Shown: piece after piece, positions 41,187-61,853 of the stretch
How positions within the stretch are numbered: position 1 is the stretch's first letter
Layout of the letters: each line of letters starts with the position of its first letter
Origin: an uncultured Muribaculaceae bacterium
GTDB taxonomy: Bacteria > Bacteroidota > Bacteroidia > Bacteroidales > Muribaculaceae
NCBI GenBank assembly: GCA_934667475.1
Contig: CAKUMB010000001.1
Location: forward strand, 279,397-343,396
Direction of reading: 5' to 3'
Length of the DNA stretch: 64,000 nucleotides
Position numbers and translations under genes: made by a program
The notes under the pieces: model-generated
Databases searched by the model: none
Seen by the model: only the letters and a program-made list of their open reading frames with translations
Told to the model about the DNA's origin: nothing

Positions 41187-41222
41187 AAAAATAAAGACTC
41201 TGAATGTGTTGTCGGCGCTGTG

Positions 41223-41975
41223 TTAGTCGTCTTGCTGCACGGGCAGGCTGGCCAGCTTTTCGGCGGCGTCCATTATGTGGGGGTTCAGTTCGTCGCTGCG
41301 GATTTTGCCGTCGCGCAGCATGATGTTGCGGCTTGAATACTGGGCAATCTCGGGGTTGTGGGTGACGAAAATGAGCGTGCGCCCCTCGTGATACAGTTCC
41401 TGAAACAGCACCAGAATTTCAAACGAAGTGCGGGTGTCGAGGTTGCCCGTGGCTTCATCGGCGAGTATCACGGCCGGGTCGTTGACCAGGGCGCGGGCTA
41501 TGGCCACGCGCTGCATTTGTCCTCCCGACATCTGATTGCTCTTGTGGTTAAGGCGCGAGCCTAGGCCCACGCGCTCAAGTGCGGCTATGGCACGGCGGCG
41601 GCGTTCCGAGGCGCTCACCGAGGGGTTGTACATAAGCGGCAGCTCCACATTCTCCACAGCCGTGGTCTTGGCCAGCAGGTTGTAGTTCTGAAACACAAAG
41701 CCTATCTTGCGGTTGCGCAATATGGCGCGTTGAGCCTTGCTCATTGAGCGCACCGGCGTGCCGTCGAGGCGGTACTCGCCGCTGGTGGGCGAGTCGAGGC
41801 AGCCCAGAATGTTGAGCAGGGTCGATTTGCCCGAGCCTGATGTGCCCATAATGGTCACAAACTCGCCTTCCCTTATGGTGAACGACACACCGCGCAGCGC
41901 ATGCACCACCTCGTCGCCCACCACAAAGTTGCGTCTTATGTTTTCGAGCTCGATGATTGGTTTCTTGTTGTCCAT
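41223..41975 (-). CDS. ABC transporter ATP-binding protein (MacB/LolD-type)
   Basis: About 250 aa. Walker A is GTSGSGKST, the signature is [15 protein letters not shown], and Walker B is [11 protein letters not shown]. Start taken at [12 protein letters not shown]. Confidence 0.9.
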
Positions 41976-41998
41976 AAAGCAAAATCGTGGTTTGATGG

Positions 41999-43216: not shown

Positions 43217-43259
43217 ATCACATTGTTGTTTTTTTGAACGATTGTTGCTGAAAAAACTG

Positions 43260-44636
43260 CTACAGAGCCATCTGTCCGCCCTGGTAGTAGCTGAGCATGG
43301 CGGCGTTGAGCACGGCCATGTATTTTGCCTGAATCATTTGTTGTGCGGCCTTCGAGAGGTTTGTCTTGTCGGTGAGCAGCTGCACAATGTTTTTCAGGCC
43401 CAGGCGGAACTGCTCGCTGGTGAGCTCATAGCTGGTGCGTGCATACTGCACCTGCTCTTTGGCTGCGGCATAGCGCTGCTGGGCGCTGGTGGCCTGCTGC
43501 CAGTAGCCCTCAATCGACTTCCACAGCGTCTTTTGCGAGTCGAGCAGGTCGAGATAGCTGCTCTCCTTTTCCAGGCGCGCCTTGGCAATGGCGTTTTTTG
43601 TCTTGCCGCGGTCGTAGATGGGCACGCTCAGCGTCACGCCCAGCGTGTTGCTCCACTGGCGCTTCAGCTGGTCGAAAAAGCCGCCGTTGCCGGTTATGGT
43701 GTTGGTGCTCATGCCTGCGTTAAGCGATATTGACGGCAGCGAGCCGGCCTTGGCTATCTTCTCGTCGAGTTCGCTGCGGTTCATGGCCAGCTTGCCGGCC
43801 TGTATTTCGGGGCGCAGAGCAAGGGCGGCGGCATAAACGTCGGCCTTGGCTGGCAGTGGGGTGAGCGCATCGGCATCGGTGCCGCTCGTTGCCAACTCAA
43901 GGTCTTGGTCGCCGTCGAGCTCAAGCAGCTGCTTCAGTTGCAGCTTGTAGTCGGCCAGTGTCGACTCGTCGGCCACCAGCTGGTAGCGGTCGGTGGCGTT
44001 TTGCGACTCCAGTTGTGCCACGTCGGCCTTGTTGAGCAGTCCGCTCTTAAACAGTCCGCGTCCGCGGTCCAGCTGCTTTTGCGACAGTTCTATCTGCTCC
44101 TTGTCCTGCTTCACCGTTTCTTGCGCATAGAGGATTTGCACATACAGTTTGGTCACACTCTCTTCCAGATTAAGTTCTTGCGCGCTCACGTTGAGGTCGG
44201 CAATCTGGCTGTTGAGTTGCTGCAGCTTCACGTTGTTGGCCGTTTGGCCGCCGTCATACAGTGGCATCGATGCGCTCAGCCCATAGTCGCCCGTGTAGCT
44301 GTTTTTGTGGTTGGTGCTCACCACCTGCGAGCCGTTGACCATGGCCGAATTGCTTTGAAACGGACGGTTGCTGAAGCCCTGGCTCGTTTGGAACGACACC
44401 TGCGGCAGTCGGGCGCTTTTTGCGTCTTTCACATCGATTTGCGCCGACTGTGCGCTCACGCGCAAGCGGCGCACTGCCACGTTTTGCGTCTTGGCCCGGT
44501 CGATGCACTGCTGCAGCGTCCACTGCTGCGGCAGTGCCGTGGCGGTGGAGTCTTGCGCGGCCATGCCGCTGTGCAGCAGCCATGCGGCCGCGGCTGTTAA
44601 AATCAATATTTTTACCTTCATAACACCTGTTTTCAA
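43260..44636 (-). CDS. TolC-family outer-membrane efflux protein
   Basis: 458 aa with a signal peptide and two TolC-like repeat halves. It lies upstream of the MFP/ABC genes in the same operon. Confidence 0.85.
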   Translation of the reverse strand: MKTGVMKVKILILTAAAAWLLHSGMAAQDSTATALPQQWTLQQCIDRAKTQNVAVRRLRVSAQSAQIDVKDAKSARLPQVSFQTSQGFSNRPFQSNSAMVNGSQVVSTNHKNSYTGDYGLSASMPLYDGGQTANNVKLQQLNSQIADLNVSAQELNLEESVTKLYVQILYAQETVKQDKEQIELSQKQLDRGRGLFKSGLLNKADVAQLESQNATDRYQLVADESTLADYKLQLKQLLELDGDQDLELATSGTDADALTPLPAKADVYAAALALRPEIQAGKLAMNRSELDEKIAKAGSLPSISLNAGMSTNTITGNGGFFDQLKRQWSNTLGVTLSVPIYDRGKTKNAIAKARLEKESSYLDLLDSQKTLWKSIEGYWQQATSAQQRYAAAKEQVQYARTSYELTSEQFRLGLKNIVQLLTDKTNLSKAAQQMIQAKYMAVLNAAMLSYYQGGQMAL

Positions 44637-45779: not shown

Positions 45780-46826
45780 TTATTGTTCTTTTATAAGGAA
45801 TATTTCGGTGGGGAAGTGGTCGCTGTAGCCGTTGAGAAACACTCCGCCCGAGTAGGTGCGCAGCGGGTAGCCCTTGCGGTCGCCCTCCTGTGTCTTAAGG
45901 AAGTCGCGGTTGAGCACGTCAGCTCGCATGAATGTGAGCCGTGGCTTGTCGTTGCCCTTGTAGTGCTGCATGAAATATTGCGAAATCACTATTTGGTCAA
46001 ACAGGTTCCACTGTCCCTTGTAGGCCAGTGTGCCTATGCCCTTGTCAAGCTTGTCCCACCAGGGGTTGTAAAGGTCGCCGGGCTGCTTCACATCGGCCGC
46101 GTTGCGCTTGCCGCCAAGGGCCTCTGCCACGCTCTTGTCCATGGGGTCGTCGTTGAGGTCGCCCATGAATATTATGCCCTGGTTGGGGTCATCGCGCAGC
46201 AGCGAGTCGATGGTGCGCCGTGCCATGGCAGCTGCTGCCTCGCGCAAATAGCTCGAGCGCTCCTGTCCGCCCAGGCGCGACGGCCAGTGGTTCACTATCA
46301 CACTCACCTTTTCGCCGGCCAGCATGCCCGTCACGCACATCTGGTCGCGGGTGCGGAAGCTGTCATAGCCCGGAATGTGCAGCGTGGTGTTCACCACATT
46401 CAGCACGCGAAACAGGCGCGGGTTGTAGAGCAGCGCCACGTCGATGCCGCGGCGGTCGGGGCTGTCGTGGTGCACTATCTGCATGTGCCAGTCCTTGATT
46501 TCGGGCTGTCTCACGAGGTCTTGCAGCACGCTCTTGTTTTCCACCTCGCTCACGCCCACTATGGCGGGGCCCATTGGGGTGTGCTTGGTCTTCATCTGGC
46601 TAATGGCGTAGGCCATGTTGTGCTGCTTCGACCAGTATTTCTGGCCGTTCCATTTGCGTGCACCGTCGGGGGTGAACTCACTGTCATACTTGCCGTTGTT
46701 GTTGATGGTGTCGAACATGTTCTCCAAGTTGTAGAACATCACCCCATACACTCCATATCGCTTCTCGGCGCTTATGGCAGCGGTGGCCAGCAGTGCGGCC
46801 ACTATCACCAGCATTATCTTCTTCAT
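45780..46826 (-). CDS. endonuclease/exonuclease/phosphatase (EEP) family protein
   Basis: 348 aa with a signal peptide. EEP motifs are present (N-terminal YNLENMFD, C-terminal SDHFP). Confidence 0.8.
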   Translation of the reverse strand: MKKIMLVIVAALLATAAISAEKRYGVYGVMFYNLENMFDTINNNGKYDSEFTPDGARKWNGQKYWSKQHNMAYAISQMKTKHTPMGPAIVGVSEVENKSVLQDLVRQPEIKDWHMQIVHHDSPDRRGIDVALLYNPRLFRVLNVVNTTLHIPGYDSFRTRDQMCVTGMLAGEKVSVIVNHWPSRLGGQERSSYLREAAAAMARRTIDSLLRDDPNQGIIFMGDLNDDPMDKSVAEALGGKRNAADVKQPGDLYNPWWDKLDKGIGTLAYKGQWNLFDQIVISQYFMQHYKGNDKPRLTFMRADVLNRDFLKTQEGDRKGYPLRTYSGGVFLNGYSDHFPTEIFLIKEQ

Positions 46827-47408: not shown

Positions 47409-47466
47409 CCAATAAAAAGCAACAACTAACTTTTTTATCCACCAATCAACACACACACTAACCATT

Positions 47467-47964
47467 ATGTTTCAACAAATCATTACCCTCAAGTGCAGAG
47501 TGAAAAACACCATCGGCTGGATTAAGCGCAACCGCGCCCTGCTCATTCTGCTCGTAATCATCCTCATCATGCTGGTGCTGGCCGCCTGCAGCCACGGCGA
47601 CACCATGCTGGCCGCAACCATGGTGGCCGGAGTGGCCGGCGGCAAGCATGTGGTGGGCGGCCCGCTCACCACCGACCTCGCCTCCAAGGGCAGCCCCGAC
47701 CTGCTGCTCAACGAAATCGACCGCCAGATAGTGAAAATCCGCCCCATGGCCACGCCCATCGACCAGCTTTCGCGCTGCGCCGGGGCCAAGCACTCGGGCA
47801 GCATGGTGGTGGACTACTACAATGTCGACACCAAGCCCACCCGCACCCGCACCGCGGCGGCCTACACCGCTCCCACCACCCAGGCTGCCAGCGCAAGCAC
47901 CAAGGTGGCAATATCGACTGACAACGACGAAATCTTCGATGCTTCCGACACTATTCTGGTGTAG
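47467..47964 (+). CDS. hypothetical membrane-anchored protein (upstream segment of an ORF interrupted by in-frame TAG)
   Basis: 165 aa with an N-terminal TM (ALLILLVIILIMLVLAAC). It ends at TAG 47962-47964. The same frame continues immediately into the 47968 ORF. Confidence 0.5.
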   Translation: MFQQIITLKCRVKNTIGWIKRNRALLILLVIILIMLVLAACSHGDTMLAATMVAGVAGGKHVVGGPLTTDLASKGSPDLLLNEIDRQIVKIRPMATPIDQLSRCAGAKHSGSMVVDYYNVDTKPTRTRTAAAYTAPTTQAASASTKVAISTDNDEIFDASDTILV

Positions 47965-47967
47965 GGT

Positions 47968-48879
47968 GTGCACGGCTATGAGCCCGACGGCGTCACGCCC
48001 AGCGACAAAGAGCTTATGCTGTATGTGGTGTCGCGCGACGAAACTGGCGGACTGGTGGTGCAGGCCGTGAATGGCAAAAACATCGACAAGGGTGTGAACT
48101 GCGTGCCCTCGATAGCCAAGGGGAGCACCCTGATTAGGATGGGGCGCGCGGCCAGCGAGCTCGATGTGATGTCGCCGCAGTTCGAGGCACTGCCCACCAA
48201 GGCGCAGAACTATTGCCAAATATTCAAAATGCAAATTGAACAGAGCACCCTCATGCGCATGGCCAACAAAGAGGTGCAGTGGAACATGAGCGACCAGGAG
48301 GAGGCCGCCATCTACGACATGCGACTGGGCATGGAAAAGAGCTTCCTTTTTGGCGTGAAGCGCTCGCTGTGGGACAATGTGCGCAAGCAGACGCTGCTGT
48401 TCACGGGCGGCATCTGGTACCAGGCCGGCAAGACGTGGAACTACGATGACTCGTCGCTGACGCAAGACAGCATCATCGACATGATGCGCGAGGCTTTCAC
48501 AGGCAACGCGGGCAGCAAGCGCAAAATCCTGATTGGCGGCTCGGGTCTCATTGGCCGGCTCAACAAGCTCGACTACAGCAAGGTGATAACCTCGCGCGAC
48601 ACCGTGAGCAAGTGGGGCATCGACTTCAATGAGCTGCGCTCGAAGTTTGGCACGCTTTATGTGATGCTGAGCGAGGTGTTCGACGAGTGCGGCATGGCCG
48701 ACAACGGCATAGTCATCGACCCCGAATATATGCAGAAGTACAGCCACGTGCCTTTCAGCACCGAGGCTCTCAACCTAAAGGCCAGCGGTGTGCGCAATGT
48801 CGACGCCCTAGTGCTCACCGAGGCCAGTTGCCTGGTGCTGCGCTACCCTAAGGCCCACATGCGCATCATCATGCAGTAG
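47968..48879 (+). CDS. hypothetical protein (downstream segment; GTG start directly after the amber codon, or readthrough/pseudogene)
   Basis: 303 aa in the same frame as 47467-47964. There is no ATG until about 48016. A hairpin terminator follows at 48931-48975. Confidence 0.55.
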   Translation: MHGYEPDGVTPSDKELMLYVVSRDETGGLVVQAVNGKNIDKGVNCVPSIAKGSTLIRMGRAASELDVMSPQFEALPTKAQNYCQIFKMQIEQSTLMRMANKEVQWNMSDQEEAAIYDMRLGMEKSFLFGVKRSLWDNVRKQTLLFTGGIWYQAGKTWNYDDSSLTQDSIIDMMREAFTGNAGSKRKILIGGSGLIGRLNKLDYSKVITSRDTVSKWGIDFNELRSKFGTLYVMLSEVFDECGMADNGIVIDPEYMQKYSHVPFSTEALNLKASGVRNVDALVLTEASCLVLRYPKAHMRIIMQ

Positions 48880-48930
48880 CCGGTCACCAGCGGCAGTCTA
48901 ATCCCGTAACCGAAAAAACTAAGCCAGCTT

Positions 48931-48975
48931 CAAAGCCCTCTCATCAATCGGGCTTTGAGGCTGGCCTCTTTCTTG
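48931..48975. terminator. hairpin between convergent genes 47968-48879(+) and 48993-50069(-)
   Basis: An 8-bp stem, CAAAGCCC (48931-48938) / GGGCTTTG (48950-48957), then a short second stem GAGGC..GCCTC and TTTCTT. Confidence 0.3.
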
Positions 48976-48992
48976 TCAGACAGGTGTGCGCG

Positions 48993-50069
48993 TCACTCCA
49001 TGTTCTGCTCAATCCACTGTTCGGGTTGCGGGTTGAAGCGTATTTTGCCGGGATCAATGGCCAGGCGATAGATTTCGCCGCGCTTGCCGGCTATCGCATA
49101 CGGGTTTTCGCCATTGGCTTCGGGCCACTTCACCGTGCGCGCCACAATGCGGTTGATTTTGCTCAGTGCCTGGTTGCGCAGTTCGGTGCTGCACATATAT
49201 TGCTCCACCTTTCGCATGGCTTCGGCCCGCGGGCAGTCTTTCAGACAACTGTAGATGGCGGCCAGCTCTCTGGAGTGGTCCACAAGGTCTTTGAGTCGCA
49301 CGCCCTCGGGGTGGCGCATGAAAAACATATACAGCATTTTCTGTATGCACGACATTTTCAGCTCCACCTCATCGTAGTCGGGCAGAATTATCTTGAAGTC
49401 GTTGTTCACCACAATGGGGCTTTCCATCGTGGGAGAGATTACTATTTTTCCTATAAGGGCTTTGCGAAGCTTTTCGGTGGGGTCGCTGTGGGTGCGCAAA
49501 ATGTATTCGGTAATCAGGCTGCGCAGCTGGTCTTCGAGCTTTTCATACTCCTCATCGATTTCATGCTCTTGAGCCATCTCTTGGTAGTCGCCATGTGGCG
49601 GCGCGGCGCAAAAGCTGAATCCCTTCTTCGAGCGGATTGGCGCATGGCTGTAGTCATAGTCGTCTATAAAAACAGCAAGCCTTCGTCGTAAATCGCTGTA
49701 GTCGACGATGTCATCGCATTGGTCCAGCCTGTCCACATACACCTCTTTGTCGCCGACCTGGGTGTCGAAAATGTCGGTGGATTGGGTCAGCAATTCTTCC
49801 GACAAACAATCAACCGCCGTCCCCATGGAGCCATGCAAGTGTCGCACGCGTATGCTCAGTTTGGCGTCGTGCCCTATGTTCACAACGTTGAAGCGCTTCG
49901 TCTCAACGCTTATGTCATAGTCTCTGGGCCGCTTGTCGACCACAATCTGTGGCTTGGCCTGCCCTAGCAGGGAGTCGCTGTGCAGGTGGCTGCGCAGCTC
50001 GTTGGCTATTCGCTCGCTGCTTACGCGTATGGTCACCGTTGGGTTTAGTGATTCGTTTGTCGTTGTCAT
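48993..50069 (-). CDS. hypothetical protein (partner of upstream vWA gene)
   Basis: 358 aa with no recognisable motifs. It is co-oriented with the vWA gene and 45 bp downstream of it. Confidence 0.55.
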   Translation of the reverse strand: MTTTNESLNPTVTIRVSSERIANELRSHLHSDSLLGQAKPQIVVDKRPRDYDISVETKRFNVVNIGHDAKLSIRVRHLHGSMGTAVDCLSEELLTQSTDIFDTQVGDKEVYVDRLDQCDDIVDYSDLRRRLAVFIDDYDYSHAPIRSKKGFSFCAAPPHGDYQEMAQEHEIDEEYEKLEDQLRSLITEYILRTHSDPTEKLRKALIGKIVISPTMESPIVVNNDFKIILPDYDEVELKMSCIQKMLYMFFMRHPEGVRLKDLVDHSRELAAIYSCLKDCPRAEAMRKVEQYMCSTELRNQALSKINRIVARTVKWPEANGENPYAIAGKRGEIYRLAIDPGKIRFNPQPEQWIEQNME

Positions 50070-50114
50070 AAAAGAAGCTGTAGTGTTATGCTTTGTTTGT
50101 GTTATATGCGGTTT

Positions 50115-50834
50115 TCAGCGCTTAAAGAATCGTTTGTTGCGTGAGCGCTTCTGCATTATCCTTTCTTCGTCGCTCATCGACTCGTCGAGCATGAAAGCAA
50201 CCTGGTCGTTGGTCCAATCTTTGCTGCAATAGCATAAGCGAACGGCCATGTCTTTTACACCCGATTCCGACTTTTCGAATTCAATCGCGTTGTCGATCGA
50301 GAGGCCGTAGGCCACGCTTTCCACATCGTGGTCGGCGCCCATGTAGGCAAACATCCATCCCTCATTTTTATACGCCTCGACAAGGGCTTTTATTGCCTTG
50401 CGTGAGAATTCTTTCGACGCATTCTCATATCCGTCGGTGATGATGGTCACCTGCACCAAGGCGTTTTTGTTGTCGCCCACTATTTCGTGAAGTCGTGTGA
50501 TGCTGTTGCCCATGGCGTCGTAGAGTGGCGTCATGCAGCATGGACGGTAGTCCTTCATCGCCAGTGGCTTGGCCTCTTCTACTGGTGTGTTGTCGTAAAT
50601 CGTCTGCAGTGAGCACCCGCAGAATGCCACAAGCGTCACCATCGATTTCTCGTTGGCCTTGTGGGTCTGCTGGCGTGCGCGAATGCTGCCAATGGTTTCA
50701 TTCACTGCATCCACGGCATATTTGCGAATGCTGCCCATCGACCCGCTGCGGTCAAGAATGATGAGGTTGTAGTTGGTGATCACTTTTTCCTCTGCGGCTT
50801 TGCTGCCTGCTGCTGTGTTGTTGTTCTCGTTCAT
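50115..50834 (-). CDS. von Willebrand factor type A (vWA) domain protein, TerY-like size
   Basis: 239 aa. It has a canonical MIDAS (LIILDRSGSMGS), with the downstream T and D residues conserved (ITDGYEN). Confidence 0.8.
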   Translation of the reverse strand: MNENNNTAAGSKAAEEKVITNYNLIILDRSGSMGSIRKYAVDAVNETIGSIRARQQTHKANEKSMVTLVAFCGCSLQTIYDNTPVEEAKPLAMKDYRPCCMTPLYDAMGNSITRLHEIVGDNKNALVQVTIITDGYENASKEFSRKAIKALVEAYKNEGWMFAYMGADHDVESVAYGLSIDNAIEFEKSESGVKDMAVRLCYCSKDWTNDQVAFMLDESMSDEERIMQKRSRNKRFFKR

Positions 50835-52740: not shown

Positions 52741-52899
52741 GAGGCACGGGTGCAACTGTTTTGTGCCGGTGCAGCGTCGAATAATTAAGTGTCTGGTGGT
52801 CGCGTTTGCTTTTTTTAACGCCAAATCAAATCCCGCACCGCACTTTATCGATAAATTTGCTATTTAATATATAGTATGCAACACAATTCGGCAATCAAG

Positions 52900-54363
52900 A
52901 TGAAATCAACATTGCGACTTTTGACTATTGCGGCCGTGGCTCTGATGGCTCTGCTGGGCGCCACTGCGTGCGGCGGACGCGGCGGCGCACTCGACAAGGC
53001 CATCCGTTCGGCCATGATTAGCGGCGACACCACCCGCAAGGCCTACGATGGCATTTGCCAGCTGATAAAGGACAACCCCGACAAGTATGCCGCCTATCTC
53101 ACCGACGGTGGGCAAATCAACGTTGAAGAGCTGGCCAAGAAAGTGACTGAGGTGGGCCACAGCCTGCGTCCGCCTGTCGACTGGGACATAACCCGCTATG
53201 GCGCAGCCAGCCTCACACTCACGGTGTATTTCGAGCGCAGCGGCTCAATGGTGCCCTACGATAGCCGCTCGGGAGGCGGCCAGCTGAAGGCGGCCGTCAA
53301 CGACCTGATTAACGCCTTCCCGTCGCACTCGGCTGTGAAAATCAACATAGTGAACGATAACATATATCCCTACAGCGGCACCGTCGATTCGTTTCTGCAA
53401 GACCGCGACATCTATGCCAGCACCGCCGGCACGGGCGATGCCAGCCACACCGACTTCAAGCTGATTTTCGACAAAATCATCAGTGCCCAGCCGGCCAACA
53501 ATGTGAGCATCCTGGTGACCGACATGATTTATTCGCCTGCCGACACCCACGATGTGAGCGTGGAGAAAATATTTCACGAGGAAAATGGCGTGGCCGCATC
53601 TATATTCCGCAACCACAATGGCAAGTCGGTGATAGTGAGCCAGCTGATGGGTGACTACGACGGCAAGTATTACCCTTACAACGGCCAGCCGTTTGACTAC
53701 CACGGCAAGCGTCCCTTCTACCTTATTGTGATAGCCGACGCCAAGACCATCGACCAGATGGCTGCCGACCCGGCGTATGCTGCCGTGGTGCATCCTGCCG
53801 CTGCTGTCAACACCTATCGCTTCAACCAAGGCGAGGCCCAGGTGGCCTTCAAGGTGATACCCGACTGGAAGGACAATGCCGGCCGCTTCCGCGTGTCGCA
53901 CGACGATCCGCACTTGCTCACCGGCTGCACCCCTGACCGCACCACGGGCAAGCTGCGCTTCAGCCTGGCCGCCAACCTTGGTGCGCTGCAAAAGGATGCT
54001 GCGTTTTTTGCCAACGGGTCGCACTTCGCAGTGCGCTCGCTCAATGGCTTCGACGTTGCAGTCAGGCCCATCGGACAGTCCGACCTCAGTGCCAACAACA
54101 AAGCCTACCTCGACGGCATGACACACATAATCACCCTCACGGGAAAGATGACCTCGCCGCAAGACGATGTGACTATTTCCATCGACAACGACTTTCCGCA
54201 GTGGATAACGGCCTCTACGGCCACCGACGACACCAATCCCTCGGCGTCTGGCTTCGCCACCACCACGTTTGGCCTCGACAGCTTTATGCGCGGTATCTAC
54301 AGCGCGTTTGCTGGTGGCAACACCCGCTACTACACCAAAATTGAACTGAAACTGAAAAATTAA
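52900..54363 (+). CDS. vWA-like domain lipoprotein (divergent MIDAS ExSGS)
   Basis: About 487 aa with a lipoprotein signal (LLGATAC). LTLTVYFERSGSMVPY resembles the vWA beta1-MIDAS segment, with E in place of D. It is the first gene of the tight seven-gene operon. The ORF track starts at 52876. Confidence 0.65.
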   Translation: MKSTLRLLTIAAVALMALLGATACGGRGGALDKAIRSAMISGDTTRKAYDGICQLIKDNPDKYAAYLTDGGQINVEELAKKVTEVGHSLRPPVDWDITRYGAASLTLTVYFERSGSMVPYDSRSGGGQLKAAVNDLINAFPSHSAVKINIVNDNIYPYSGTVDSFLQDRDIYASTAGTGDASHTDFKLIFDKIISAQPANNVSILVTDMIYSPADTHDVSVEKIFHEENGVAASIFRNHNGKSVIVSQLMGDYDGKYYPYNGQPFDYHGKRPFYLIVIADAKTIDQMAADPAYAAVVHPAAAVNTYRFNQGEAQVAFKVIPDWKDNAGRFRVSHDDPHLLTGCTPDRTTGKLRFSLAANLGALQKDAAFFANGSHFAVRSLNGFDVAVRPIGQSDLSANNKAYLDGMTHIITLTGKMTSPQDDVTISIDNDFPQWITASTATDDTNPSASGFATTTFGLDSFMRGIYSAFAGGNTRYYTKIELKLKN

Positions 54364-54375
54364 CATCAAACGAAT

Positions 54376-54825
54376 ATGCAAAAAGACACAATCTATCTCA
54401 CAGCCGGCATTGTGGTCACAGTGCTGTTCTGGCTGCTGCGCGTGCAGCTGATTGAACTGGTGTACACTGCCCCTGGCTATAGCGACAACATGTATAACCT
54501 GGGCATCTACGACACCGTGGCCATGGTAATCACCGCCGTGGCGTGGGTGGGCGCAGGCATTTACTATTATGTGATTAATTCAGTCCGCTTTGACCGCTGG
54601 TGGCATTGGCTGGCTGTGCTGGCCGTGGTGGCCGTGCTCACTCCAGTGGTGTGCTACAGTGTCAACACCAGCGTGTTCAGCGACAACGGCGGCATCAGCT
54701 ATCCCGCCGAGACGGCCGCGTTCCAAACGGCCACGGTGCTCTACTCGGTGCTGATGTTTGTGGTGGCGTCATTCTCCATTCGCTGGTGGAGCAGCAACTG
54801 CCGCCACACCCCAATACCGCAATAA
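54376..54825 (+). CDS. small polytopic membrane protein (4 predicted TM)
   Basis: 149 aa with four hydrophobic segments. Separated by 12 bp from the previous gene. Confidence 0.6.
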   Translation: MQKDTIYLTAGIVVTVLFWLLRVQLIELVYTAPGYSDNMYNLGIYDTVAMVITAVAWVGAGIYYYVINSVRFDRWWHWLAVLAVVAVLTPVVCYSVNTSVFSDNGGISYPAETAAFQTATVLYSVLMFVVASFSIRWWSSNCRHTPIPQ

Positions 54826-54864: not shown

Positions 54865-56397
54865 ATGAGACTATTCATATTTGCAATAGGCGGCACCGGC
54901 TCAAGGGTGCTGAAGTCGCTGCTGATGCTGTCGGCCGCTGGTGTGCGCCCGGTTGGCCCCGACGGCAAACCGGTGCCCAATCTCGAACTGGTGCCCATCA
55001 TCATCGACCCCCACAAGAGCAACGCCGACCTCAAGCGCACCGAAACGCTGCTGAGCGCCTACCGCATGCTGCGCCGCCAAATTCATGGCGACGAGGTGAA
55101 CGCCAGCGGCTTTTTCGCCGCCAAGATATCCACTTTGCGCGACATCATGCAGGGCTCGCCCGTGCCGCTCGACGACTCGTTTATATTCAACATGGCCGCC
55201 GTGGGCAGCAAGAAGTTCCGCGACTTCATTTCCTACGACACCATGAATGAGCCCAACCAGGCGCTCACCTCGCTGCTCTTCGCCGACTATCAGCTTGAGA
55301 ACAAAATGAGCATCGGCTTCGTGGGCTCGCCCAACATAGGCAGTGTGGCGCTCAACGGCATAAAGGACAGCAACGAGTTTAAGGCGTTTACCAGCGTCTT
55401 TGCCGACGGCGACCGCATATTCTTCATAAGCTCGATATTCGGTGGCACTGGCGCAGCCGGTTTCCCCATATTGGTGAAAAACATACGCCAGGCTGCTGGC
55501 GCCGACATCAAAAACCGCGCCTTCCTGCAGACGGCCCCCATAGGCGGCCTCACTATGCTGCCCTATTTCAGCCTGATGCAGAGCGACGACAGCAGCGACC
55601 GCCGCATTGCCAGCAGCGACTTCATAGTGAAAACCCAGTCGGCGCTGGAATACTACAACCAAACCATCACGGGCGACAGCGGCAGTCAGGTGAACGCCAT
55701 CTACTACCTCGGCGACCACGGCCACGACGCCCCCTACAAATATGATCCGGGCGACAAGCAGGACCAGCACGACCCGGCCCACCTGGTGGAGTTGGTGGGC
55801 GCACTGGCCCCGCTCAACTTTGCCGGCCTGCCCGCCGACCAGCTTGTTGACCCCGTCACACGCGCGCCGCTACCCACCAAGGCCTTTGAGTATGGCCTCG
55901 ACGACGACACCGACGACGTGTGCTTTGCCTCGTTGGGCAAGCAGACGCGCGACCTGGTGTATGAGAGCATGGTGAAGTTTCACCTGCTGTTCATATTCCT
56001 GCGCACGGGCTTCAGCGGCATGATAGGGCAGGGCTTCACCGAAGACGCACCCAAAATCACGCGCGACTTCACCGCCACGCAGTTCTACCGCACCCTCACC
56101 GACTCGTTTTTTGGCGGCTACACCGAGTGGCTGAGCGAGCTCAAGTTCAACCGCCGCCACGTGGAGCCGTTCTGCAGCGGCGTGTTCGACATGACCAGCG
56201 CCATCAAGGGCGTGCACACACGCAAGGGCTTCTTCGGTGCCAAAACGGTGAACTGCGACACCTTTAAGAGCGAGATGAACAAGCTTAGCCGCGACAATCA
56301 CGACTACGCGGGCCGCACGCTGGAGTTCAAACTCATGGATTTGTTTAACAAGGCCGCAGCCAAGATAATTGCCGAGCGCTACGACAACATCAACTAA
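54865..56397 (+). CDS. FtsZ/tubulin-superfamily GTPase-like protein (divergent; Tubulin_2/FtsZl-like)
   Basis: 510 aa. The N-terminus has a T1-like glycine loop (MRLFIFAIGGTGSRV). A T4-like signature (RIFFISSIFGGTGAAGFPILVKNI) follows about 185 aa later and is comparable to FtsZ FIAAGMGGGTGTGAAP. A long C-terminal extension is present. It is not the canonical ftsZ. Confidence 0.72.
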   Translation: MRLFIFAIGGTGSRVLKSLLMLSAAGVRPVGPDGKPVPNLELVPIIIDPHKSNADLKRTETLLSAYRMLRRQIHGDEVNASGFFAAKISTLRDIMQGSPVPLDDSFIFNMAAVGSKKFRDFISYDTMNEPNQALTSLLFADYQLENKMSIGFVGSPNIGSVALNGIKDSNEFKAFTSVFADGDRIFFISSIFGGTGAAGFPILVKNIRQAAGADIKNRAFLQTAPIGGLTMLPYFSLMQSDDSSDRRIASSDFIVKTQSALEYYNQTITGDSGSQVNAIYYLGDHGHDAPYKYDPGDKQDQHDPAHLVELVGALAPLNFAGLPADQLVDPVTRAPLPTKAFEYGLDDDTDDVCFASLGKQTRDLVYESMVKFHLLFIFLRTGFSGMIGQGFTEDAPKITRDFTATQFYRTLTDSFFGGYTEWLSELKFNRRHVEPFCSGVFDMTSAIKGVHTRKGFFGAKTVNCDTFKSEMNKLSRDNHDYAGRTLEFKLMDLFNKAAAKIIAERYDNIN

Positions 56398-56408: not shown

Positions 56409-59400
56409 ATGAGTAAAATTCTGTCATATAACAATAAGACCACCAAGACGGCCGACCGCGACTGGATTCCTGTTGAGCCGTATGACGACGATGACATAAA
56501 AGCCATACGCGACCCCAACGGCGGCATGTCGGAAAATCCGCACACCGCCATTCCCAGCCCGTTTGCGCAACTCGACCTTGTGAAAAACGCCTTTGCCCAC
56601 CTTGCGGCAAGCATCAGCCTTGCCGGCACCATGATGGACAAGCGCCTTGTGTCGACCGCCCTCGATGTGGCCCAGCTGCTGTTCAACTACGAGAGCCACC
56701 GCGACTATCTGCACATAGTGCGCTGGAACCGCGATGAGCAGATAGCGCGCCTCAAGAGCGAGCCCGAGCACCGCCTGTATGGCGACACACTCGACCTGTT
56801 TCTGCTCAGCGACACCAAGTATAACTTTAATCTGCTCACCGACTGGTATATAGTTATGTGGCACAACCGCGTGATTGGCGCCACATCGCCGTCATCGTTC
56901 ACAATGGGAGTGCCGCGCGAAAGCGAGGAGCCCATAGGCGACATAATGGTGGAGCAGGGTGTTCCGCTCTTTGCCGCCGACACGCGTCACTTGTGGCAGC
57001 GCGACGCCGACTTCGTGCGCATGATGTATTTGCTGTTCAACGCCTATCCCGTGTTGCGCAAGTCGCTCACCGAGGTGTATGCCTACATGATTCGTAACCT
57101 CGACCCCATCCGCCAGCAGCGCCCCGAACTTTATGCCAGCCTTGTGGCTGCGGTCCCCAACATGGAGTCGTTCAGCCCCGAGACCGCCGACCGTGTGCTC
57201 GAACAGCTCGAAATGGACTACGACCCGTTTGCGGGCGACAACGAGATTACGCTGCTGGGCGCACGCCTTTATCACAAGCGCGCCGCCGACATAATGCGCG
57301 ATGTGGCTCAAAGCGACTTCATGCTTGCGCCCACGCTGCCGCAGCCTGCCGGCACGCGGCTGCCGCTGGTGTTGCGCACGGGCTTCAGCGGCAGCGCCGA
57401 CGCTTACAAATATGTCGACCGCCAGTGGAATAGCGCCACCGAGGTGCTTGCCGCGGGCGTTCCCATCGACCGGCGCAAGCTGCCCGACACGGCGGTGGAA
57501 TACCCGTTTGTCACCACATCCGACCTGCTCACGCCGTCGTTGGTGCGGCTTAGCGGACCGCTCGATGGCCACCACTACTTCGACGGCAACGCCAGCGGCC
57601 GTGGTGCGGAGGCCGAATATGGCTATCTGCTGCCTCTCACACCGCTGTTTTTCAAATATTTCACCGCGGCCGACCTGTGTGGCAAGGTGTGTGGGCGCAA
57701 CATGCTCGACATCGAGGAACGCACCGGCGGCGTGACGGTGACTCTGCGCATTCCTGTGCGCAAGCGCTGCATTGAGTTCACACGCAACTACCACGTTGTC
57801 ACCGACCCCGCCTGGACGTTCGACGAACGCCGCGGCAGTGGCCGCCTGGTGACCGACGCTGTGATGAGTGCAGCTGTGTTCCCGTTTGTCAAAACTGGCC
57901 AGGCCGACGGCTACACCGTGCAGCTCTTTGCCATGGGTGCGAGCTGCGGCAGCAGCCTACAGTTCTATGCCAACGGACTGGACTCCGACTCCATTGGCGT
58001 CAGCAGCCGCTTGCGGACAAATTCCACATATTCCACCGAATACTTCGACGTGAAGGGCTCTTTCGACCTTGTCGAGGCCCGTGTCAACACCGCTTCGGCC
58101 GGCACCTGCAGCGGCTTCATAGTGCCGCGCTGGCAGCCATATGCGCCGGGCTCGCGCCAACTGGTGTTTGCCGTTGACTTCGGTACCACCAACAGCCACC
58201 TCGAGTGGGCCGAGCGCGGTCATCAGAGCGAGCCGCTCGACTTTGGCTTCTGCGACGGCTCCACGCTCATTGCCCCGCTGCTCAAGCGCGGCTCGCTGCT
58301 CATTGCCGAGCAGCTGCAGCGCATCGAGTTCCTACCCAGTGCCATCGACAGCGTGTATGGCTTCCCGCTGCGCAGCGCACTGGCCAGCAATGCCGTCAAC
58401 GACGGCGGCACACGCCTGTGGAGCAACGTCAACATCCCGTTCCTCTACGAGCGCCAGTATTTCGACGGCTATGATGTGGCCACCAACCTCAAGTGGAAGG
58501 GCGACACCGCACTCAGCCGCGAGTTTCTGCGCGAGCTGGCCTTGCTCATCCGTGCCAAGGCGCTCATCGAGAATGCCGACCTTGGCAAGACCGATGTGGT
58601 GTATTTCTTCCCTGTGAGCATGGGCGGCAGCGACCGCCGCAAGCTGCAAGACACCTGGGAGGAGCTCTATCGCACCTATATCGGGCCCGACACCGACAAT
58701 CTGCACGCCTATCCCGAGTCGATAGCCCCGGCATACTACTACAAGGGTGCCGATGTGGCCGGGTCGAGTTTCGTGACCATCGACATTGGTGGCGGCACGA
58801 GCGACACGGTGATATATCAGCCCACGCCCGACCGCCTCGACAGTGTGCCTGTGGCGGTGTCGTCGTTCCGCTTTGCGGGCAACGCCATATTCGGCGACGC
58901 CTTCACCGAGCGCGATGCCGACAACAACCCACTAATTGCGCACTATGCCGAATACTTCAGCCGCCTGGTCACCAAGAATCCCGACATCACCTATCTCAAC
59001 AGCATATTGCAGTCGGTGCTCAAGCAAAAGCGGTCGGAAGACGTCAACGCTTTCCTATTCTCAGTCGAGAATGTGGAGCAGCTGCGTCAGCTGCAGGAGG
59101 TGGACCGCAACCTGTATAGCTACGACGCGCTGCTGCGCAACGACGACCAGCGCAAGCTGGTGTTTATGTATTTCTACGCTGCCATCATCTACTACACGGC
59201 GCAGTCGATGCTGGCGCGCGGCTACGAGCCGCCCAAGCAAATCTACTTCAGCGGCACCGGCTCGAAGATATTGAGCATATTGGGCACCACGCAGCAGGTG
59301 CGTGAGTTCACGCAGCGCATCATCGAGGAGGTGATGCAGAAGCGTTACACCGAACCGTTCGACATCAAGGTGGAGCGCGAGTGTCCCAAGCAGGTCACTT

Positions 59401-59846
59401 GCCGCGGCGGTGTGCGGCTTGAAAATGAGCGCCTCGACCACAAGGCCGACACCAGCGCCTATTCGGCCCGCAACATCAACCGCCTAAAGTACTGCTTCTC
59501 GATGATAGGCAGCGAAAGCCTCACCTACGGCCAGGTCAACCAGCTCGACACACGCGGCCGCATTGCCGACAGTGTGCGCGAGTTCAACCGCTTCTTCTTG
59601 TCGCTGTGCGACAATGAGACCAAGGATGAGTTTGGCATCGAGGGCAAAGTGTTCCGCCTGTTTGCCAGCGTGGTCAACAACGGCCTTGACAACTACCTCA
59701 CCGCCGGCATCAACAGTTTCTTGAAGGGCCGCTACGAGGAGGCCGATGTGGTGGAAGATGTGCCGTTCTTCTATCCTGTGATAGGTGTCATCCGCTACAA
59801 TCTGCTTAAAAACCTGTGCAACGAGGTGATCTCTAATATACAATGA
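56409..59846 (+). CDS. large protein with uncharacterised N-terminal ~580 aa and C-terminal Hsp70/actin-like (ASKHA) ATPase domain
   Basis: 1145 aa. Three ASKHA motifs appear in canonical order. Phosphate-1 is VFAVDFGTTNSHLEW (aa ~589; compare DnaK IGIDLGTTNS). Phosphate-2 is VTIDIGGGTSDTVIY (aa ~790; compare FDLGGGTFD). The adenosine/connect-2-like motif is IYFSGTGSKI (aa ~944; compare VGGSTRIP). 12 bp separate it from the FtsZ-like gene. Confidence 0.75.
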   Translation: MSKILSYNNKTTKTADRDWIPVEPYDDDDIKAIRDPNGGMSENPHTAIPSPFAQLDLVKNAFAHLAASISLAGTMMDKRLVSTALDVAQLLFNYESHRDYLHIVRWNRDEQIARLKSEPEHRLYGDTLDLFLLSDTKYNFNLLTDWYIVMWHNRVIGATSPSSFTMGVPRESEEPIGDIMVEQGVPLFAADTRHLWQRDADFVRMMYLLFNAYPVLRKSLTEVYAYMIRNLDPIRQQRPELYASLVAAVPNMESFSPETADRVLEQLEMDYDPFAGDNEITLLGARLYHKRAADIMRDVAQSDFMLAPTLPQPAGTRLPLVLRTGFSGSADAYKYVDRQWNSATEVLAAGVPIDRRKLPDTAVEYPFVTTSDLLTPSLVRLSGPLDGHHYFDGNASGRGAEAEYGYLLPLTPLFFKYFTAADLCGKVCGRNMLDIEERTGGVTVTLRIPVRKRCIEFTRNYHVVTDPAWTFDERRGSGRLVTDAVMSAAVFPFVKTGQADGYTVQLFAMGASCGSSLQFYANGLDSDSIGVSSRLRTNSTYSTEYFDVKGSFDLVEARVNTASAGTCSGFIVPRWQPYAPGSRQLVFAVDFGTTNSHLEWAERGHQSEPLDFGFCDGSTLIAPLLKRGSLLIAEQLQRIEFLPSAIDSVYGFPLRSALASNAVNDGGTRLWSNVNIPFLYERQYFDGYDVATNLKWKGDTALSREFLRELALLIRAKALIENADLGKTDVVYFFPVSMGGSDRRKLQDTWEELYRTYIGPDTDNLHAYPESIAPAYYYKGADVAGSSFVTIDIGGGTSDTVIYQPTPDRLDSVPVAVSSFRFAGNAIFGDAFTERDADNNPLIAHYAEYFSRLVTKNPDITYLNSILQSVLKQKRSEDVNAFLFSVENVEQLRQLQEVDRNLYSYDALLRNDDQRKLVFMYFYAAIIYYTAQSMLARGYEPPKQIYFSGTGSKILSILGTTQQVREFTQRIIEEVMQKRYTEPFDIKVERECPKQVTCRGGVRLENERLDHKADTSAYSARNINRLKYCFSMIGSESLTYGQVNQLDTRGRIADSVREFNRFFLSLCDNETKDEFGIEGKVFRLFASVVNNGLDNYLTAGINSFLKGRYEEADVVEDVPFFYPVIGVIRYNLLKNLCNEVISNIQ

Positions 59847-59847
59847 T

Positions 59848-60666
59848 ATGGAACTTACGAAAATCAAGAGAACGATAATTGCCGCGGTGCTTGCGCTTGC
59901 CACGGTGCTCGGCGCTGCAGCGCAGACCGACACGGTGGCAAGTGCAGAGCCTGTCAATCCTGTTGGCAGTGCCGATTCGGCCGCGGCCGTGCTGCCACCC
60001 GACACTGTGGCCGCCGTGCCGCCTGCCAAGGAGGCTCAGCCCGCCGCCGACCGCACTCGCGACTTGATGGCCGGCTGCACCCTGGCCGCCCTTGTGCTTG
60101 GCTTGGCCGGCACGGTGATGGCCATGTCGGCCCGCCGCCGCGTGCGCGAAACGCAATCGGCCATCAACACTTGTGCCGAGCGCATCAATGAGCTCGTCAA
60201 CGCCGTTACAGCCCTTAATGCCGACGTCGAGCACCTCAGCGCCGAGGTCGATGGCCTGCGCCGCCAGCCGCTGCAGCCTGCGCCGGCCCGTAAGCCTGCC
60301 GTGTGCAAACCGCCACGGGCCACAGCGGCCCCGGCCGCGCAGCACCCGCAGGTGTTGTATCTCAGTTGTCCCGATGCCGAAGGCTACTTTGGCCGTGCTA
60401 CGGCCAGTGCCGTGGCTGGCAACTCGGTGTTTGTGCTGCGCACCACCGACGGCCGCACCGGCACGTTTGGCGTGATTGACGATGCCGCCGTGCACAGCAT
60501 GGCGCTGATGATGCCCACCGCCACGCTCACTGGGGCTTGCGCCGGCACCGGCATACAGGTGTCTGGCCATGCGCGCCGCATAGTCACCGACCAGCCGGGC
60601 ACCGCCGTGCTCAAGGGTGGCAGGTGGCACGTTGAGACTAAAGCCGTAATTCACTACGAACCATAA
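59848..60666 (+). CDS. bitopic membrane protein with coiled-coil segment
   Basis: 272 aa. A signal/TM region is followed by a second TM (LMAGCTLAALVLGLAGTVMAM), a coiled-coil (INELVNAVTALNADVEHLSAEVDGLRRQ), a P/A-rich linker and a C-terminal domain. The start is 2 bp after the previous stop. Confidence 0.55.
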   Translation: MELTKIKRTIIAAVLALATVLGAAAQTDTVASAEPVNPVGSADSAAAVLPPDTVAAVPPAKEAQPAADRTRDLMAGCTLAALVLGLAGTVMAMSARRRVRETQSAINTCAERINELVNAVTALNADVEHLSAEVDGLRRQPLQPAPARKPAVCKPPRATAAPAAQHPQVLYLSCPDAEGYFGRATASAVAGNSVFVLRTTDGRTGTFGVIDDAAVHSMALMMPTATLTGACAGTGIQVSGHARRIVTDQPGTAVLKGGRWHVETKAVIHYEP

Positions 60667-61205
60667 TGAAGTGCTATTGTCCTAAATGCGGGCGCAAGAT
60701 AGAGGTCACCGCCCAGGAGGCTGCGCGCCTTGGCGGACACCTTGTGTGCCCGCAGTGCCTGGCGCGCGTTGATGTGGCTGTGCCAAAGCCCACGGCTGCG
60801 GCAGTTGCCGAGCCGCCTGCCACCCCCAAGCCGCGCCAGCAGGCTCAGGCTCCTGCGGCAGGAGGCCGCTTCTGCCCCAAGTGCGGGGCCAAGGTGCGTG
60901 CCACCGATGCCTTCTGCAAGTCGTGCGGGGCGAGTCTGGGCGCAACGCGGCGCAAGTCGGATGTGGGCACGCCGCCGCCATACCGCAGTCAGCGCCGTGC
61001 AGCCGCACCGGCTCCTGCCTACCGCGCACCGCGCACCGTCGCGCGCCCGTCAGTGCCGCGCCAGGCCTTTGCGCGTCGCCCGTCCAGTAGAAGTGAAGCC
61101 AAAGCTTCCACTTCCGTTGGCGGACTGGGCTGCATGTGGCGCACCGCCGTGGGCGTGGCCGTTGCCTTTGCGCTCTATGCGATGCTTGGCCTGGCCTTTC
61201 AGTAG
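60666..61205 (+). CDS. MJ0042-type zinc-ribbon protein with C-terminal TM anchor
   Basis: 179 aa. The N-terminal CPKCGRK...CPQC zinc ribbon is followed by a second CPKCGAK...CKSCG ribbon, a P/A-rich linker and a C-terminal TM. Its start overlaps the previous stop. Confidence 0.6.
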   Translation: MKCYCPKCGRKIEVTAQEAARLGGHLVCPQCLARVDVAVPKPTAAAVAEPPATPKPRQQAQAPAAGGRFCPKCGAKVRATDAFCKSCGASLGATRRKSDVGTPPPYRSQRRAAAPAPAYRAPRTVARPSVPRQAFARRPSSRSEAKASTSVGGLGCMWRTAVGVAVAFALYAMLGLAFQ

Positions 61206-61250: not shown

Positions 61251-61853
61251 ATGAAGATAACTTGCCCGAAATGCGGATATGTGACCGAGATTTCCGAGAG
61301 CGAACTCAGCGCCGTCAATCACACAATCGTGTGCCCGCAGTGCATGTCGCAGCTTAAGGTGGATGGCGACTATGCCTATATTCCCACCGACAGCCAGACG
61401 TTTGACCCGCAGCCCGAACCGCCTGCCGCCGAGGTGGAGCGCGAGCCGTGCGACGACGGCAATGGCGGCTGGGTGGCCGCCGACGGGGTCGACGACCCTC
61501 TGATGGCCGATGCCATCGAATACATTAAGATGTGCAATGCCATATCGGTGCCAATGCTGCAGCGCTATCTGCAAATCAGTGCCGACCGCGCTGCCCAGCT
61601 CATGAAGCAGCTCGAGCAGAAAGGGGTGGTGGGCCCATACACGGGCGGACCGCGCACCATTCTAATTCCGCACAGCAGCGACCCCTTCGCCCCCACGCCG
61701 CGCAACCGCGCCGAAACGCAAATGCTCAGAGAGTTGCGCCAGCGCATGGCCAGTGGCGATGCCAAGACGCGCATGTTCAACTGCTCGGGCTGCTCCATTG
61801 TGCTGTTTGGACTGCTGGTCGTCCTTCTGTTGGCGCAATTGTGTACGCATTAA
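61251..61853 (+). CDS. zinc-ribbon protein with FtsK-gamma-like winged-helix and C-terminal TM anchor
   Basis: 200 aa. The N-terminal CPKCGY...CPQC is paralogous to the previous ORF. The middle region AIEYIKMCNAISVPMLQRYLQISADRAAQLMKQLEQKGVVGP resembles the FtsK gamma wHTH (…VSxLQRRxRIGYNRAARLIEQME..GIV). The C-terminus carries CSGCS plus a TM. Confidence 0.6.
   Translation: MKITCPKCGYVTEISESELSAVNHTIVCPQCMSQLKVDGDYAYIPTDSQTFDPQPEPPAAEVEREPCDDGNGGWVAADGVDDPLMADAIEYIKMCNAISVPMLQRYLQISADRAAQLMKQLEQKGVVGPYTGGPRTILIPHSSDPFAPTPRNRAETQMLRELRQRMASGDAKTRMFNCSGCSIVLFGLLVVLLLAQLCTH

Follow-up and report, generated by a model that had tools for sequence, protein, structure and literature searches.

The canonical adjacent pair of actin-fold and tubulin-fold genes in bacteria is ftsA-ftsZ, located in the dcw (division and cell wall) cluster, in which the actin-fold protein FtsA tethers the tubulin-fold FtsZ polymer at the membrane and regulates it. 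Here we describe a gene for a giant protein with an ATPase domain of the ASKHA (acetate and sugar kinases/Hsc70/actin) type, together with its tubulin-like neighbor, in a 64,000-nt stretch of DNA from an uncultured Muribaculaceae bacterium (contig CAKUMB010000001.1, positions 279,397 to 343,396, forward strand), which is referred to in full as the window. The two genes are as follows:

54865-56397, + strand: predicted divergent tubulin/FtsZ-superfamily protein of Tubulin_2/FtsZl1 type, 510 aa, directly upstream of the target gene
56409-59846, + strand: target gene, ATG start, encoding a cytoplasmic protein of 1145 aa with no predicted transmembrane (TM) segment

On balance, we lean towards the target working at the membrane as a nucleotide-driven (ATP) partner of the tubulin-like GTPase or as its adaptor, a reading that we consider modestly probable. 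FtsA-FtsZ provides the closest logic for such an arrangement, with its adjacent actin-fold and tubulin-fold genes, but there are several differences. The module described here has the tubulin-like gene first, such that the order is reversed, and the target is about three times larger than FtsA, with ~580 extra residues at its N-terminus and ~130 at its C-terminus. Moreover, homologs of the target match the Pfam FtsA model below threshold only, and the partner is of the Tubulin_2/FtsZl1 type rather than FtsZ, with no divisome genes nearby. Other actin-like proteins, namely ParM, MreB and PilM, are single-domain proteins of 280-380 aa, whereas the target is a multidomain protein with family-specific inserts.

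Among published genomic classes, the nearest is that of operons encoding vWA and FtsZl1 proteins, which were predicted to remodel membranes by Makarova and Koonin (2010; PMC2875224), who listed no ASKHA partner and described families B1-B9 only as membrane or low-complexity proteins. Our locus resembles these operons in that a divergent tubulin-like gene, with homologs that match PF13809, lies amid genes for membrane-associated proteins, in that OmpA/MotB-like partners are found in many loci, and in the vWA-like motifs of a lipoprotein; it differs in that their FtsZl1 proteins are larger, often with coiled coils, and in that vWA identity is unproven here. Tubulin and HSP70 components have also been reported in the DO-GTPase/GAP1-N2 conflict systems of Firmicutes and Actinobacteria, where the two themes occur in separate neighborhoods (Kaur et al., 2020; PMC7159879). 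The likeness to such GTPase-centric systems lies in the combination of tubulin-like or HSP70-fold components with TM, vWA-like, OmpA-like and peptidase components, whereas the module described here has no DO-GTPase or P-loop protein and brings both NTPases together.

The 1145-aa open reading frame (ORF) has exactly the extent given in the initial annotation of this DNA, which was made from the sequence and its ORFs alone. Neither the target protein nor either of its halves matched any model in Pfam, NCBIfam or PADLOC at E-values up to 10, and both a single-sequence phmmer search against all PDB sequences and a profile of 23 close homologs searched against the PDB returned chance matches only (nanobody, SmpB). 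Relatives were nevertheless numerous. A word-indexed search found 426, the best 120 of which were nearly all full length and 44-100% identical to the target, with the named ones among these 120 coming from Muribaculaceae or Bacteroidales and annotated as "hypothetical protein". When 1.84 billion cluster representatives (50% identity) were searched exhaustively with a profile, 1,917 fell into the family at E ≤ 1e-3, of which 917 reached E ≤ 1e-30, and nearly all of the best 150 of the 1,917 matched end to end and were 1,100-1,220 aa long. All 15 named matches were from Bacteroidota (Muribaculaceae, Prevotella, Rikenellaceae, Cytophagales, Flavobacteriales and Sphingobacteriales). The target is thus a member of a large uncharacterized family of proteins of ~1100-1200 aa, so far found in Bacteroidota only. 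A genome scan yielded at least 13 confirmed loci, with the matches listed including Sodaliphilus, Prevotella, Rikenellaceae, Spirosoma, Rudanella, Hymenobacter, Solirubrum, Gillisia, Flavobacterium and Sphingobacterium as hosts.

More than 12 named Hymenobacter species fell within 90%-identity clusters of the family, which indicates strong purifying selection; divergent types were also found inside one genus, with one Hymenobacter pair sharing 44% identity and one Prevotella pair 28%. Full-text literature searches found no paper about this family, and public records carry conflicting automatic names for the homologs P0391, P0398 and P0424. Some homologs are called "acetate and sugar kinases/Hsc70/actin family protein" in GenBank, the sole name backed by our Pfam scans, while the UniRef names "Baseplate protein J-like domain-containing protein" and "Virulence factor SrfB" had no Pfam backing. 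SrfB (PF07520, of the srfABC operon) is likewise a ~1000-aa family with a phosphate-2-like motif in the middle of its profile. The match to it consisted of a single 20-residue stretch at the phosphate-2 motif of one homolog (from locus L025), scoring 11.5 bits against a cut-off of 27.1, and the window protein itself had no match, so we rejected kinship with SrfB and regard the match as a lead, not a relationship.

The assignment of the C-terminal half of the target is carried by its motifs and by a structural model. The ASKHA domain and four of its five motifs are located as follows, with connect-2 at aa ~994-1000:

58161-59438, + strand: predicted ASKHA (actin/Hsp70-type) ATPase domain, aa ~585-1010, with a duplicated beta-beta-beta-alpha-beta-alpha-beta-alpha core
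58176-58196, + strand: phosphate-1 motif DFGTTNS, aa 590-596, at the turn between strands 585-591 and 596-602, which form the first beta-hairpin
58713-58742, + strand: connect-1 motif PESIAPAYYY, aa 769-778, whose invariant E770 begins helix 770-778
58782-58805, + strand: phosphate-2 motif DIGGGTSD, aa 792-799, in a hairpin (strands 788-793 and 798-805)
59247-59270, + strand: adenosine motif FSGTGSKI, aa 947-954, where strand 944-948 passes into helix 950-958

The counterpart of the connect-1 motif is NEPTAAA in Hsp70 and EEPMAAA in MreB. In an alignment of 48 sequences with a mean column identity of 32%, the invariant residues included D590, G592 and T593 of phosphate-1, E770 of connect-1, D792, G794, G795 and D799 of phosphate-2, G949 of the adenosine motif, and K994 and G1000 of connect-2, and the most conserved 20-residue block of the whole protein was that containing phosphate-1. 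Since these key residues are invariant across the 48 sequences, the three ATPase motifs noted in the initial annotation (phosphate-1, phosphate-2 and adenosine) are not chance occurrences. That annotation had put them at aa ~589, ~790 and ~944 with a spacing like that of the Hsp70 nucleotide-binding domain (NBD), and both points held: the motifs begin at aa 590, 792 and 947, and, counted from phosphate-1, connect-1, phosphate-2 and adenosine begin 179, 202 and 357 aa further on, compared with 162, 186 and 331 in the E. coli DnaK NBD, such that the order is equal and the target modestly expanded.

An AlphaFold2 model of the full-length protein, built with 23 homologs, had a mean pLDDT (predicted local distance difference test score) of 82 and a pTM (predicted template modeling score) of 0.67, with low confidence at aa 1-51, 644-657 and 664-687. 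When this model was compared with the PDB using Foldseek, the top matches were Hsp70 NBDs and MreB (E = 2e-8, probability 1.0), and Hsp70s scored no better than ParM, PilM, FtsA or MreB. Among the sequence-based searches of the PDB, the 48-sequence profile alone reached ASKHA proteins, namely MreB (E = 4.9e-4), FtsA and Hsc70 (E = 0.017-0.1), in each case at phosphate-2, while hhalign paired phosphate-1 with DnaK and phosphate-2 with MreB. Against Pfam, the target itself matched neither MreB_Mbl nor FtsA, and homologs gave sub-threshold matches at phosphate-2 only, with best scores of 17.7 bits for FtsA (cut-off 31.8) and 16.5 bits for MreB_Mbl (cut-off 27). The model contains two RNaseH-like subdomains, with the five motifs in order at the expected hairpin and strand-helix positions. 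This placement, together with the secondary structure of the model, identifies the C-terminal half, as predicted in the initial annotation, as an ASKHA domain of the actin/Hsp70 clade which, as modeled, is about equidistant from the known branches. Two inserts interrupt the domain, one poorly modeled (aa 644-687) and one helical and IIB-like (aa ~841-936). Judged by the conservation of its motifs, the domain is catalytically intact, and its conserved catalytic residues predict Mg-ATP binding and hydrolysis.

From the adenosine motif to the end of the protein there are 191 aa (~200 in the initial annotation), ~55 of which complete the ASKHA fold, while the last ~130 are helical. It follows that there is no Hsp70 substrate-binding domain, and the absence of such a domain or a lid had been called correctly. 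The N-terminal 580 aa had been described as having no recognizable motif, which stood insofar as this half has no recognizable relative, but required amendment for aa ~430-572, where an Ig-like beta-sandwich was visible by structure only. The parts of the protein outside the ASKHA domain are as follows:

56538-56594, + strand: family signature peptide P-x-T-x-IPSPFA-x-LDLVKNAF, aa 44-62, with P49, S50, P51 and A53 invariant
56559-57683, + strand: predicted alpha/beta module, aa ~51-425, family-specific
57696-58124, + strand: predicted Ig-like beta-sandwich, aa ~430-572, a generic fold match directly N-terminal of the ATPase domain
59451-59843, + strand: modeled C-terminal helical extension, aa ~1015-1145, with no match

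Taken together, the model describes a four-part protein that would consist of an alpha/beta module, an Ig-like beta-sandwich, an ASKHA ATPase domain and a C-terminal helical bundle. Apart from the Ig-like sandwich, the N-terminal 580 aa had no sequence or fold match; the alpha/beta module, with ~375 confidently modeled residues, had no match among solved structures and given this is possibly a new fold. The aa 41-60 block is the second most conserved of the protein, after phosphate-1, and the signature peptide that overlaps it bridges the N-terminal tail, modeled with low confidence, and the helix that comes first in the protein. This IPSPFA peptide, whose conservation equals that of the catalytic motifs, could be a partner-binding or membrane-binding element. 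The helix that follows the invariant T-x-IPSPFA has a hydrophobic residue at about every third or fourth position.

We accepted the 510-aa neighbor as a divergent protein of the Tubulin_2/FtsZl1 type on the following sequence features. The T1-like AIGGTGSR, T3-like GSPNIGS and T4-like SSIFGGTGAAG motifs occurred in this order and were invariant in 13 homologs of the protein, and the T3 and T4 motifs were collinear with those of E. coli FtsZ in an alignment. Pfam Tubulin was matched by all 13 homologs, with a best E of 2.9e-4, and Tubulin_2/PF13809 by 10 of them (best E = 8.5e-7). The best PDB profile match of the 510-aa protein was to CetZ (E = 0.11). Its homologs carry public names such as "FtsZ/tubulin family protein" and "Tubulin-like protein", and one has a precomputed PF13809 match.

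The target gene and this neighbor lie within a row of + strand genes that are spaced by 1-45 nt or overlap, which is consistent with a single operon. The other members are as follows:

52876-54363, + strand: lipoprotein, 495 aa, with a signal peptide and a lipobox whose cysteine (Cys32) is invariant
54376-54825, + strand: small integral membrane protein, 149 aa, with ~4 TM segments and with conserved counterparts in many related loci
59848-60666, + strand: membrane protein p272, 272 aa, in which a signal-like segment and a TM segment are combined with a coiled coil
60666-61205, + strand: tail-anchored double zinc-ribbon protein, 179 aa, accessory, in some Muribaculaceae loci only
61251-61853, + strand: tail-anchored protein, 200 aa, accessory and lineage-specific, in which a zinc ribbon is combined with a DNA-binding winged-helix domain of the FtsK-gamma type (PF09397, E = 1.1e-14)

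The start codon of p272 lies 1 nt past the target stop codon. Predicted topology places neither NTPase in the membrane, as both are without TM segments, and each of their partners is membrane-anchored. We compared synteny over 26 related loci (designated by L numbers) by tblastn and blastp. Wherever a distinct locus extended upstream of the ASKHA gene, the tubulin-like gene directly preceded that gene, L025 being the one exception; L012 had no upstream DNA. Co-occurrence with the FtsZ-like gene was therefore near-universal. The tubulin-like identity of the neighbor, as given in the initial annotation, was supported by its glycine-rich T motifs and the Pfam Tubulin and Tubulin_2 matches of its homologs, whereas to call the pairing of ASKHA and tubulin-like genes rare was an overstatement, given the canonical ftsA-ftsZ pair and the presence of tubulin and HSP70 in the conflict systems mentioned above.

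The lipoprotein was present in most related loci, and a downstream protein ending in a p272-type domain was found in 12. This C-terminal domain of ~100 aa is conserved phylum-wide, with invariant C, G and W residues, and had no match in the PDB. The core of the module thus comprises the lipoprotein, the 4-TM protein, the tubulin-like GTPase, the ASKHA giant and the TM/coiled-coil protein. Conserved LExSGSM and SDxIYS motifs in the lipoprotein resemble the metal-ion-dependent adhesion site (MIDAS) of vWA domains, with Glu replacing the first Asp; searches of the lipoprotein against Pfam and the PDB gave no match, so a classification as a vWA protein is without backing from either. As for the accessory genes, the presence of an FtsK-gamma domain in a membrane-anchored protein is an unusual combination, and in another Muribaculaceae locus (L003:14604-15140) a 178-aa retropepsin-like protein (Asp_protease_2/gag-asp_proteas) is encoded between the p272 homolog and the zinc-ribbon gene. 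In L025 (3005-8441), the ASKHA gene follows an S24 (LexA/CI-like) peptidase gene and a ~1.1-kb stretch without any ORF of at least 120 aa, with a weak rve-like ORF nearby.

Most loci outside Muribaculaceae and Prevotella carry, in addition, MotA/MotB (ZorAB-like) genes downstream of the ASKHA gene. This long form was found in L008, L010-L016, L018-L020, L022, L023 and L025, with Flavobacteriales, Sphingobacteriales, Cytophagales, a Rikenellaceae metagenome-assembled genome and IMG/VR contigs as hosts. Example stretches are as follows:

L018:9308-13182: long-form stretch
L025:10123-13179: long-form stretch

The long form encodes a MotA/ExbB-like protein of ~550 aa, whose GLMGTMVGI TM motif is accompanied by a long coiled coil and by a TM segment at the C-terminus (PADLOC ZorA3, E = 6e-6). 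It also encodes one or two MotB-like proteins, which show YADLMT as well as MotB_plug and OmpA features (ZorB1, E = 4e-13). A trypsin-like protease with a signal peptide was also present in L008, L018, L019, L022 and L025. ZorAB-like sequence was found nowhere in the window, nor in the Muribaculaceae and Prevotella loci. The likeness to Zorya is thus that of the long-form relatives with ZorA/ZorB-like genes, while no ZorC-G were found and the window copy has no ZorAB-like genes. With no PADLOC match in the window operon, and with weak ZorA and clear ZorB-like matches but no ZorC-G in the long-form relatives, we rejected membership in Zorya.

In the IMG/VR contigs L018 (86-1312), L019 and L022, the complete module is immediately preceded by the gene for a tyrosine integrase with Arm-DNA-bind_5, Phage_int_SAM_5 and Phage_integrase domains, and a partial one was found at L023:3-386. 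Some copies of the module therefore appear to ride on integrative elements. The target-family gene was also found on eight IMG/VR contigs. A phage origin was rejected, as there were zero matches in 50,697 curated phage genomes and the eight IMG/VR copies were either whole modules beside integrases or host-like DNA. A plasmid origin was rejected as well, with the sole match being a family copy on an unannotated 1.77-Mb Prevotella replicon.

Under our favored reading, the target would be an obligate partner of the Tubulin_2/FtsZl1-type GTPase encoded directly upstream. Binding and hydrolysis of ATP in the ASKHA cleft would switch the conformation or the oligomeric state of the giant protein, which, by analogy with the way in which FtsA connects FtsZ to the membrane and divisome, may couple assemblies of the tubulin-like GTPase to membrane-embedded partners. 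Where the long form is present, this assembly would probably also receive a signal or force from the envelope through a proton-driven MotA/MotB (ZorAB-like) unit. The analysis shows the gene, its fold, the conservation of its motifs, the size of its family, the synteny and the predicted topology, and from these we infer the ATPase activity, the physical contact with the tubulin-like protein and the cellular role alike. Three observations weigh against this reading. The homolog in L025 has no tubulin-like gene, such that the pairing is not absolute; the 510-aa window protein scores below the Pfam cut-offs for Tubulin-type models (12.4 and 10.4 bits; 12.4 against a cut-off of 33); and the window copy is of the short form without MotAB-like genes, hence a MotAB role cannot be general.

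As to what such an assembly might do, one possibility, which we rate as real although well short of an even chance, is that it serves as a housekeeping envelope or cytoskeletal machine. The module would then be a Bacteroidota version of the predicted vWA/FtsZl1 membrane-remodeling system, engaged, for example, in the remodeling of the membrane or of outer-membrane vesicles or in the upkeep of the envelope, with the ASKHA giant as an ATP-driven scaffold. The core gene order is kept over several orders of the phylum and sequence conservation is strong inside genera, both of which fit this proposal, as do the membrane association of all of the partners, the OmpA/MotB-like partners, which are also found in FtsZl1 operons (PMC2875224), and the vWA-like motifs of the lipoprotein. 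On the other hand, the vWA identity of that lipoprotein has no Pfam or PDB match behind it, the Bacteroides FtsZl1 proteins in PMC2875224 are 913-1103 aa rather than ~500 aa, some copies reside on integrase-flanked elements, and divergent types occur within single genera.

These last two features point instead towards a conflict system directed against phages or mobile elements, a proposal that we rate as slightly less probable. Envelope parts (the lipoprotein and the long-form ZorAB-like unit) would sense invasion and trigger the tubulin-like and ASKHA proteins to assemble in a nucleotide-dependent manner, so that they act as effector or scaffold. Long-form loci with MotA/ZorA-like and MotB/ZorB-like proteins, and in some cases the trypsin-like protease, are in keeping with such a role, as are the integrases adjoining the module in L018, L019 and L022 (partial in L023), the S24 repressor-like peptidase and weak rve-like ORF beside L025, and the eight IMG/VR contigs with the gene. 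The coexistence of divergent types in one genus (Hymenobacter at 44%, Prevotella at 28%), the variation in accessory genes (zinc ribbons, FtsK-gamma, Asp protease) and the differing flanks across Muribaculaceae genomes would also be expected of it, and tubulin and HSP70 are assembling components of conflict systems in PMC7159879. Against it, however, zero PADLOC models matched the window operon proteins and no match was found among the curated phage genomes, two negatives that instead favor the housekeeping proposal, and the sole "plasmid" is a 1.77-Mb replicon. The operon encodes no nuclease, toxin, DO-GTPase or other P-loop protein; a DO-GTPase/GAP1 system was likewise rejected, as no Walker A/P-loop and no GTPase domain match was found in any operon protein. 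The window copy lies amid ordinary genes, with GH20 upstream, an efflux pump, and rimP-nusA downstream, and with no mobile-element or defense gene, including any integrase, near the module within the window, an ordinary chromosomal setting that again suits a housekeeping function. In addition, identity of at least 90% over many Hymenobacter species is unusual for a defense gene, and the ZorA matches fall mostly in coiled-coil regions and may be compositional.

A specialized Hsp70-type chaperone, with the N-terminal beta-sandwich and alpha/beta module replacing the C-terminal substrate-binding domain, is very improbable: the target shares with the DnaK NBD its fold, the order and similar spacing of the five ASKHA motifs and a nearly identical phosphate-1 (DFGTTNS, compared with DLGTTNS), and its beta-sandwich adjoins the ATPase domain, but it has no significant sequence match to Hsp70 (none to PF00012 even at E ≤ 10), is structurally no closer to Hsp70s than to the actin-like families, aligns with full-length Hsp70 chains (5e84, 3d2e) over ~295-309 residues, near the 286 of an NBD-only chain, has a sandwich that resembles Ig-like domains and not the Hsp70 SBD-beta, and has no DnaJ or GrpE co-chaperone domains among its operon neighbors. 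The target is thus in all likelihood not an Hsp70 chaperone. Returning to the GTPase-partner reading, we commit to neither the envelope machine nor the conflict system and only to their common denominator, namely a partner of the GTPase at the membrane, which we hold to be somewhat likely.

The fold class was already known, as were the ASKHA-type GenBank labels on some homologs. The four-part architecture, the unmatched N-terminal module, the fixed pairing with a Tubulin_2-type gene, the five-gene core and the long form with its MotAB/ZorAB-like unit were not described in any source that we searched. The target represents a new ASKHA family within a new FtsZl1-type module, and the entire module may realistically prove to be a new kind of system. 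This is a large family, present in the abundant gut Muribaculaceae and Prevotella, yet without a Pfam, NCBIfam or PADLOC model or a solved relative. Its fixed gene pair joins the actin-fold and tubulin-fold superfamilies of cytoskeletal NTPases outside cell division, and in most sampled loci outside Muribaculaceae and Prevotella this pair is also linked to a MotAB/ZorAB-like unit. It further provides a concrete, testable partner for FtsZl1/Tubulin_2 proteins, whose function and filament formation have been open since 2010. A bolder proposal, which we put forward as doubtful, is that the giant ASKHA ATPase joins with the tubulin-like GTPase in an unrecognized second "FtsZ/FtsA-like" nucleotide-driven assembly, so far in Bacteroidota only, with the long form wired to the proton-driven MotAB/ZorAB-like unit and envelope proteins. 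If true, this would amount to a new trans-envelope machine, or to a Zorya-like class of defense with a cytoskeletal polymer as its output instead of a nuclease.

Further upstream in the window, three successive predicted ORFs (429, 358 and 239 aa) without a Pfam match occupy 47458-50834 on the - strand, upstream of GH20. The efflux pump is a MacB-type system (39963-44636, - strand) consisting of a MacB_PCD/FtsX permease, an HlyD-family adaptor and an OEP outer-membrane factor, and a protein of the Exo_endo_phos_3 family is encoded at 45780-46826.

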